Below are positions 186 through 541 of a stretch of DNA of 64,000 bases, one piece after another. A program made the translations under genes and the position numbers. Numbering within the stretch: the stretch's first letter is position 1; each line of letters opens with the position of its first letter. The DNA lies in NCBI GenBank assembly GCA_964016885.1, contig OZ024740.1:104346001-104410000 (forward strand), in the 5' to 3' direction. This stretch comes from Eledone cirrhosa. Lineage: Eukaryota. Below the pieces are notes generated by a model that saw only the letters and a list, made by a program, of their open reading frames with translations, was not told the origin of the DNA and did not search any database.

Positions 186-232
186 TACACACACATATAT
201 ATGTGTATGTATATATATATATATATATACAT
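82..232. repeat. (TA)n microsatellite with (CA)n/(TG)n segments
   Basis: Dinucleotide runs seen directly. Confidence 0.97.
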
Positions 233-345
233 ACTGTAAATATTGATTCAATTCAATTCAAGCACTCAACATACTTCTTCCACATAGGAATGACAGAGTA
301 TATTTAGAATAAGAAAATGCGAAGTAGTTTCAGATGTTAAAGTCC

Positions 346-351
346 TTTATT
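346..351 (-). promoter_or_regulatory. AATAAA polyadenylation-like signal just downstream of the hammerhead
   Basis: tttatt on the + strand, 6 nt beyond stem I of the ribozyme. Confidence 0.4.
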
Positions 352-357
352 GATAAG

Positions 358-433
358 GCTGTGATACATATTTCGATGACGACAGTGGCCACCCCAAATC
401 CGCATACCCAATGCCATGATCTCATCAGACAGC
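358..433 (-). ncRNA. Type I hammerhead ribozyme motif
   Basis: Minus strand reads GCUGU (433-429), CUGAUGA (428-422), stem II GAUCAUGGCA...UGUCGUCAUC (421-375), GAAA (374-371), UAUGUA (370-365), UC (364-363), ACAGC (362-358). The catalytic core is complete and stem I GCUGU/ACAGC is perfect. Stem II is closed by G-C, stem III is minimal and near-palindromic, and the cleavage triplet is AUC. Confidence 0.85.
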
Positions 434-524
434 TTCTTACATGATAAGGTTACATTCCAGAGGCAATCTAAATTGAAACAACAAGGGAACTGACAAAGAT
501 GATGTTCTCGAAGCCTTCGCCTGT

Positions 525-541
525 TTATATATATATATATA
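525..541. repeat. (TA)n microsatellite
   Basis: Seen directly; abuts SINE copy 1. Confidence 0.95.

Follow-up and report, generated by a model that had tools for sequence, protein, structure and literature searches.

Does the minus strand of Eledone cirrhosa at positions 358–433 of the window (by which we mean the whole stretch of DNA analyzed here, 64,000 nucleotides of contig OZ024740.1) contain a genuine hammerhead ribozyme and, if so, which element carries it and would it cleave? Read directly from the sequence, minus-strand positions 433 to 358 contain a complete hammerhead core of type I, with predicted cleavage between 363 and 362, as supported by the sequence and by exact core matches elsewhere. 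Helix I is formed by the 5′ strand GCUGU (429–433) and its partner ACAGC (362–358), with a pairing probability of 0.94, and the core box C3–A9 reads CUGAUGA (422–428; sequence and column counts). A long helix II domain of 47 nt (375–421, GAT…ATC) contains three pairs, a conserved C418·C378 mismatch, and then more helix. It is followed at 374–363 by GAAA (374–371), the palindromic loop III (A371–U364, AUAUGUAU), and C17, which is C363, an arrangement found family-wide, the letters 3′ of GAAA on the minus strand being TATGTA (370–365), T364, C363, and ACAGC (362–358). The hammerhead positions C3, U4, G5, A6, N7, G8, and A9, the G12–A13–A14 run, the A15.1–U16.1 pair, and H17, here a C, are all present. 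The core is flanked by helices I and II and the molecule is open at helix I. The first-pass annotation had already read the core nucleotides, stem I, and the predicted cut at 363/362 in this way, and the minus-strand sequence bears it out.

The motif is real and lies beyond chance. Its core boxes and stem I have 646 exact matches genome-wide, against 0 for a reversed-pattern control, and a loose hammerhead descriptor, which gives 0.03 matches per 24 kb of Markov-1 random sequence, matches the window only at 358–433, in keeping with the earlier claim that this is the sole candidate catalytic element there. The idea that the motif merely happens to match the hammerhead consensus, to which we give practically no weight, could draw on two null results. 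The Rfam hammerhead models, which the annotation had proposed as a check, gave no match at the window motif at the gathering score or at E≤10, and none at the gathering score in six related loci; and the folding energy of the window motif is no better than that of shuffled sequences (z −0.32). Lack of an Rfam match lowers the case for filing the motif under an Rfam family, not the case for a hammerhead. The genome-wide counts already refute a chance match, with the 646 exact core matches joined by 83,203 matches (control, 207) to the related pattern discussed below, and the helices covary. By comparison, a metagenome scan returned 114 pattern-matching stretches, and 0 of the 80 examined fold as hammerheads.

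As located by BLAST, the motif lies in a solo copy (~230–525, minus strand), truncated at its 5′ end, of the 3′ terminal repeat (pLTR) belonging to what is likely a non-autonomous Penelope-like element (PLE), which we assign to a family termed A; the similarity of the window repeat to complete units spans 224/236–525. A 251-base query gave 2903 first-look candidates genome-wide, and among the 40 that were scored the best other copy is 91% identical. The 3′ end of the window copy is sharp and is followed by a (TA)n microsatellite (122–233), likely the insertion target, as a TA run lies 3′ of the element in 27 of 30 copies; a further (TA)n run (527–541) sits at the point of 5′ truncation. Eleven nucleotides past the cut site is AAUAAA (346–351, minus strand), likely a poly(A) signal. 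AAUAAA or AUUAAA occurs in most copies of every subfamily, the latter in 18 of 26 copies of the subfamily A_TG. Minus-strand positions 230–305 correspond to an optional 3′ tail between two preferred 3′ ends, which lie near +57 and +132 counted from the predicted cut. The longer of these ends, in the window copy (234–230, minus strand) and in family copies, falls on GTAAG, which in tandems continues into the internal region; we take this word to resemble a splice donor. A second hammerhead was sought in the 20 kb to the left, the window itself, and the 10 kb to the right, and none was found, so the window copy is without a partner.

The surroundings of the copy are repetitive. A 28-bp satellite of 2158 copies fills the window from 4018 to 64000 and continues for at least 10 kb past it (also seen at locus L318), with a 17-bp variant every 1–4 kb that suggests a higher-order structure. 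A broken LINE fragment with an AP-endonuclease-like start occupies ~1190–2600 on the plus strand and is preceded by a 114-bp direct repeat (954–1168); it is presumably RTE-like. Copies of a SINE-like interspersed repeat, also seen beside many other loci, are at 540–840 and 2660–2960, with a 49-bp duplication at 635–740 within the repeat.

Copies of family A allow the irregularities of the motif, several of which had been put down to decay, to be judged column by column, using counts over 75 copies that were found by BLAST and not by motif. In loop III, position 368 is T in 72 and position 367 is G in 70 of the 73 copies with a letter, whereas true CpG columns such as 381/380 carry 12 T and 10 A. 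Hence, the suggestion that UAUGUA is a CpG-decayed UACGUA does not hold for the copies, where the loop TG is near-universal and unlike the true CpG columns, while an older change of loop III could still have occurred in the master lineage. Decay had also been proposed for the mismatches in helix II, and here the answer is divided. The C·C mismatch is not decay, because it is conserved among the copies (C418 in 68 of 74, C378 in 68 of 73) and recurs in families whose helix II is of unrelated sequence, but the apical changes U411, U404, U398, and U396 and the extra G395 are private to the window copy and constitute its only private decay; helix II measures 46 nt in most family A copies as against 47 nt in the window. 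Similarly, the description of stem II as closed by GAU/AUC is correct for the window copy, which has the G10.1–C11.1 closing pair, but this is a minority state (C375 in 7 of 73 copies, U in 65 of 73). Most relatives have G·U or U·U, specifically G·U in 37 of 42 copies of subfamily A_GA, U·U in all 26 of A_TG, and U·U in 18 of 28 of the sister family B (123 motifs were found and the 96 of fixed length tabulated). Conservation of the core columns is barely above that of the flanks (0.949 versus 0.91 and 0.931), which is what neutral decay of the copies would produce.

These data also bear on whether the host might use the window copy as a monomer-active ribozyme, aided by the rare G10.1–C11.1 pair and an extended helix I. 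The base of its helix II does fold best among the relatives (P 0.85 versus medians near 0.01), but with C375 in only 7 of 73 copies, private apical damage, a monomer helix III limited to two pairs, and a position among repeats beside a 60-kb satellite, we consider such a role very unlikely. With no partner and a divergence of ~9% or more, the copy in the window has most likely become an inert relic.

Secondary structure is supported unevenly. Past an AA bulge (435–434), the minimum free energy fold predicts that GUAAG (436–440, minus strand) pairs with CUUAU (357–353), extending helix I; this extension beyond the 2-nt bulge, the AATAAA at 351–346, and the location of the motif within a high-copy repeat had all been absent from the first-pass annotation. 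In 40 copies, 94.8% of the cells of helix I plus its extension are paired, and the extension shows one-sided compatible changes between families A and B and loses a base pair in A_TG. For the complete proposed fold, 85.3% of cells are paired in 40 chosen copies, compared with 22–49% when the fold is slid along the alignment. Of the two outcomes of the covariation analysis that had been suggested, one favors the fold, with 38 double-change cells versus 20.3 in shuffles (a number that 0 of 500 shuffles reach), and the other does not, as pairs that carry double changes are no more numerous than in shuffles (111 of 500); the remaining measures are raised by relatedness among the copies. RNAalifold on the 40 copies misses helix II and prefers a core-blocking pairing, and the hammerhead-compatible ensemble lies above the free ensemble by 2.4 kcal/mol for the window copy and by 4.3–5.2 kcal/mol for the subfamily medians. 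The octamer AUAUGUAU can self-pair via two G·U pairs at −2.2 kcal/mol, versus −6.5 with C. In all subfamilies the core box (427–421, minus strand) can pair with 357–351, with a median probability of 0–0.25, and G421/C357 is replaced by U/A in A_TG, one possible compensatory change; judging from these folding models, this helix may possibly represent an off-state.

The full family A unit is ~1.1–1.6 kb with the ribozyme in both terminal repeats. Of the first 30 loci, seven proved on upstream walking to contain two ribozyme-bearing repeats 1082–1598 bp apart in partial tandem, 16 had an inverted, 5′-truncated piece of the element on the 5′ side, and 27 were bordered 3′ by a TA run. The distinct 3′ ends (n = 96) include 42 at 45–64 nt and 44 at 120–139 nt past the cut site and two at the cut site itself. 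PLEs are known for this set of features, namely partial tandems, inverted pieces, tails, and insertion at microsatellites (PMC8557442, PMC11167929), and the tail of family A matches the internal-start tail described in PMC11167929. The two fixed 3′ ends and the inverted 5′ pieces mark family A as a non-autonomous PLE, and the copies and their ends sustain the original view of a type I hammerhead with a short palindromic helix III in a Penelope-like context. The unit itself is non-coding: stop-free frames in five units reach 135 aa at most, a length divisible by 3 is found for 34 of the 195 pairwise indels, and a search for the PLE ORF with reverse transcriptase (RT) and GIY-YIG endonuclease gave no ORF above 135 aa and no tblastn similarity. 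Without that ORF, family A is not an autonomous PLE and we file it as a non-autonomous derivative. The layout is equally non-coding in sister family B (52-nt helix II, ~70% alike upstream) as far as that family was followed, upstream walking in both families yielded the non-coding unit only, and no autonomous element with a family A repeat was found.

Several candidates for a full-length or parental element were rejected. The repeats on contig C1765 are duplications inside another satellite, a Hydra-like RT downstream of the copy L247 is a separate insertion after a TA run without the family A ribozyme at its end, and the ORF after the ribozyme in L305 belongs to a different, nested PLE. A very abundant PLE (36,623 candidates; L125:2037–5021) has a 995-aa open frame with RT and C-terminal GIY-YIG, a CX4CX2C linker, and a minimal hammerhead of its own; it was rejected as the parent, as its ribozyme and 3′ end differ and it has no similarity to family A. 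By BLAST the family A unit is similar neither to this element nor to the ORF/UTR of family E, introduced below. A word, GCGC(A/C)TGCGC, precedes the ribozyme both in families A and B and in the unrelated 995-aa PLE (L018, L184, and L125); from its resemblance we assume that it could be a promoter element.

A pattern with the loop III of the window and a shorter helix II revealed other hammerhead families. With an AUAYRUAU loop and a helix II of 12–40 nt there are 83,203 genome matches versus 207 for the control and, when C·C at pair 4 is required (helix II of 14–42 nt), 73,478 versus 6, counts that leave out the longer-helix family of the window. The first 30 loci of this clan contain 21 distinct motifs, in which C·C is present in 20 and position 4 is paired in none, every one of the 21 forms pairs 2 and 3, with differing sequences, and helix I pairs are formed in 18–21 of 21; the identity of loop III across the clan is imposed by the search pattern, while the C·C of the 21-motif set is not. 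Across families D, E, F, and H the sequences of helices I and II differ, and their pairing is maintained. The tail words UACUC (ACTC; 300–296, minus strand) and GAGUGCU (267–261) are common to families A, B, D, E, and H, and A, D, E, and H each have two 3′ ends, near +50 and +130–150. The tail words are candidates for an enzyme recognition site; their predicted pairing has a median of 0.96 in E, 0.86 in B, and 0.01 in A. Further hammerhead families were noted at L105, L124, L031, L227, L123, and L158, with the loops ACUAGU, AUGCGCAU (C·U at pair 4), ACUAAUUAGU, ACGU, and ACGCGU.

Within the clan, family E has the ribozyme subtype of family A as the 3′ terminus of an RT/GIY-YIG element at other genomic sites. 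In five of eight regions, which were picked mostly for paired motifs, RT and GIY-YIG frames precede the ribozyme by ~1.3–1.9 kb and are read in its direction. The endonuclease is C-terminal with a CxCX5C linker, CxxC, and CxH, which together are given as the Hydra-clade signature (PMC8557442). Homologues of family E are mostly unnamed proteins of ~700 aa, and a local Pfam search of the frames gave no match. These Hydra-type PLEs (L303–L307) have an unusually long 3′ non-coding region of ~1.3–1.9 kb before the ribozyme, whereas published Hydra elements measure <3 kb in all. Family A is likely linked to the Hydra clade, a reading that draws on ribozyme subtype, tail words, end spacing, and motif matching rather than on a tree. 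With no BLAST similarity between family A and the family E ORF/UTR, we infer the partner of family A. The (TA)n insertion seen in 27 of 30 family A loci agrees with Hydra membership but is not diagnostic of it, because other PLE clades also show it.

Comparison with known systems places family A among the PLE hammerheads while setting it apart in detail. Like those of the Hydra clade (Craig et al., 2021, PMC8557442), its ribozyme is of type I and near the 3′ end, with (TA)n targets, a self-complementary helix III, and U/U or G/C, both frequent in that clade, at the base of helix II; U and U often flank helix II in File S2 of that paper. The motifs in File S2 have a short, fully paired helix II (3–7 bp) and other loop III sequences, and family A differs from the Hydra rows listed there in its 46-nt helix II and its lack of an ORF; neither AUAYRUAU nor a C·C in helix II appears in those rows. 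As in the minimal hammerheads of metazoan PLEs described by Cervera and de la Peña (2014, PMC4209133), there are terminal repeats and a palindromic helix III, together with a dimer model and mostly solo truncated copies; the Aedes and Drosophila variants in that paper have palindromes of 6–8 nt. In the metazoan consensus A9 is followed by one additional base and the G10.1–C11.1 pair is conserved, while family A has no one-sided extra base, a pair that is usually G·U or U·U, and an extended helix I. Non-LTR retrozymes (PMC7229834; 10.64898/2026.07.22.740005) are likewise non-coding, with one type I hammerhead per unit, and are proposed PLE derivatives. They form tandem arrays of 170–400 nt units (≤972 bp) with circular RNAs, whereas family A units are 1.1–1.6 kb, dispersed, and at most partially tandem, with PLE-type tails and inversions. 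The Poseidon PLE of the anole (PAc; PMC11167929) shares two internal 3′ ends with an optional tail and AT-rich targets but is autonomous and of another clade, and its ribozyme works with protein assistance and is not required for insertion in vitro.

Taken as a whole, we judge it probable that the ribozyme is a type I hammerhead of a terminal repeat and that the window holds an isolated, 5′-truncated copy of an ORF-less family of 1.1–1.6 kb, likely a non-autonomous PLE moved by a Hydra-clade enzyme and likely cleaving only as a dimer. In the mechanism that we propose, a partial tandem would be transcribed into an RNA holding two ribozymes ~1.3 kb apart, whose two AUAUGUAU loops would pair to form one 8-bp helix III. 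Each core in the paired dimer would then cut after C17, slowly and perhaps helped by the element protein. A trans-acting RT/endonuclease of Hydra type would nick (TA)n, and reverse transcription would start internally, ~57 or ~132 nt beyond the position of cleavage, which would produce the two 3′ ends; with such an internal start, cleavage would not set the ends of genomic copies. Cleavage is likely dimer-dependent by analogy with the loop III pairing modelled in PMC4209133 and PMC6765202. U·U at the base of helix II is compatible with cleavage, as the axolotl hammerhead HHR_Amex2 has the same U·U and its monomer is reported to reach 22% cleavage in one hour, its dimer doing better (PMC7229834). 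Genomic ends that do not follow the cut site are in line with the anole element, where the ribozyme depends on protein and is not essential to insertion in vitro (PMC11167929).

The same observations could be taken to mean that families A and B retain their long-helix motif as a structural signal, for protein binding, poly(A), or the start of reverse transcription, the motif being a vestige without catalytic activity. The helix II base of G·U or U·U with C·C after three pairs, the competing core-blocking folds, and copy ends that avoid the cut site would all suit a vestige, as would anole PLE insertion that is unaffected by ribozyme mutants (PMC11167929) and the eight of nine Xenopus retrozyme dimers that were uncleaved (10.64898/2026.07.22.740005). 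Given that the core boxes and loop III are alike in the majority of A and B copies while the flanks are 72–78% alike, and that U·U-based hammerheads do cleave (PMC7229834), we regard it as unlikely, though deserving of weight. A different route to the partial tandems would be that of a large retrozyme, in which two cuts free a unit-length RNA that circularizes and is reverse transcribed round the circle, as modelled in PMC4209133. Such a route would account for an ORF-less unit with a ribozyme in each repeat, and several 5′ repeats begin before the cut site, the pattern expected if more than one unit length were copied. Nevertheless, we think it quite improbable, as no arrays of three or more units occur in the loci examined, an uncut tandem precursor accounts for the identical ends, and the family A units of 1082–1598 bp, found in partial tandems only and not in head-to-tail arrays of 150–1000 bp, exceed the metazoan retrozymes of 170–400 nt (PMC7229834) or ≤972 bp (10.64898/2026.07.22.740005). 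The circular route and our preferred reading, dimer cleavage in a non-autonomous PLE, are not mutually exclusive.

The window locus is ordinary, and it is the C·C subtype, not found in the literature examined, that carries most of the interest. Hammerheads of PLEs, elements of the Hydra clade, and the derivation of retrozymes from PLEs have been described before (also bioRxiv 10.64898/2026.07.22.740005), and PMC6962438 only counts Rfam hammerheads in squid. The AUAYRUAU/C·C subtype is absent from the File S2 listing of PMC8557442, and C·C from the alignment text, as distinct from the drawings, of Fig. S3 in PMC4209133. As a tentative proposal, there is an as yet unreported hammerhead subtype, defined by loop III AUAYRUAU, a fixed C·C at helix II pair 4, and a closing pair that varies, with more than 70,000 copies in many Hydra-type PLE families, in which the C·C is functional and which families A and B, as an ORF-less parasite of 1.3–1.4 kb, exploit. 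With equal reserve, the C·C might then be a tertiary contact or a docking site for an element protein that activates cleavage. Hammerhead variants are reportedly as many as about 150,000 in the collection of Lünse et al. 2017. Our full-text literature search found no paper on the C·C subtype, which that collection may contain.

The window locus is one dead copy among thousands, and its context is more useful than the copy itself. The motifs of the clan are missed by Rfam, which leaves tens of thousands unannotated. Hammerheads of PLEs cleave poorly, and one tested case needed the protein of the element; here, one mismatch is kept across many families while all of the neighboring pairs change. 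The kept mismatch, an autonomous carrier, and an ORF-less passenger occur together in one genome, and they would allow a direct test of ribozyme activation.
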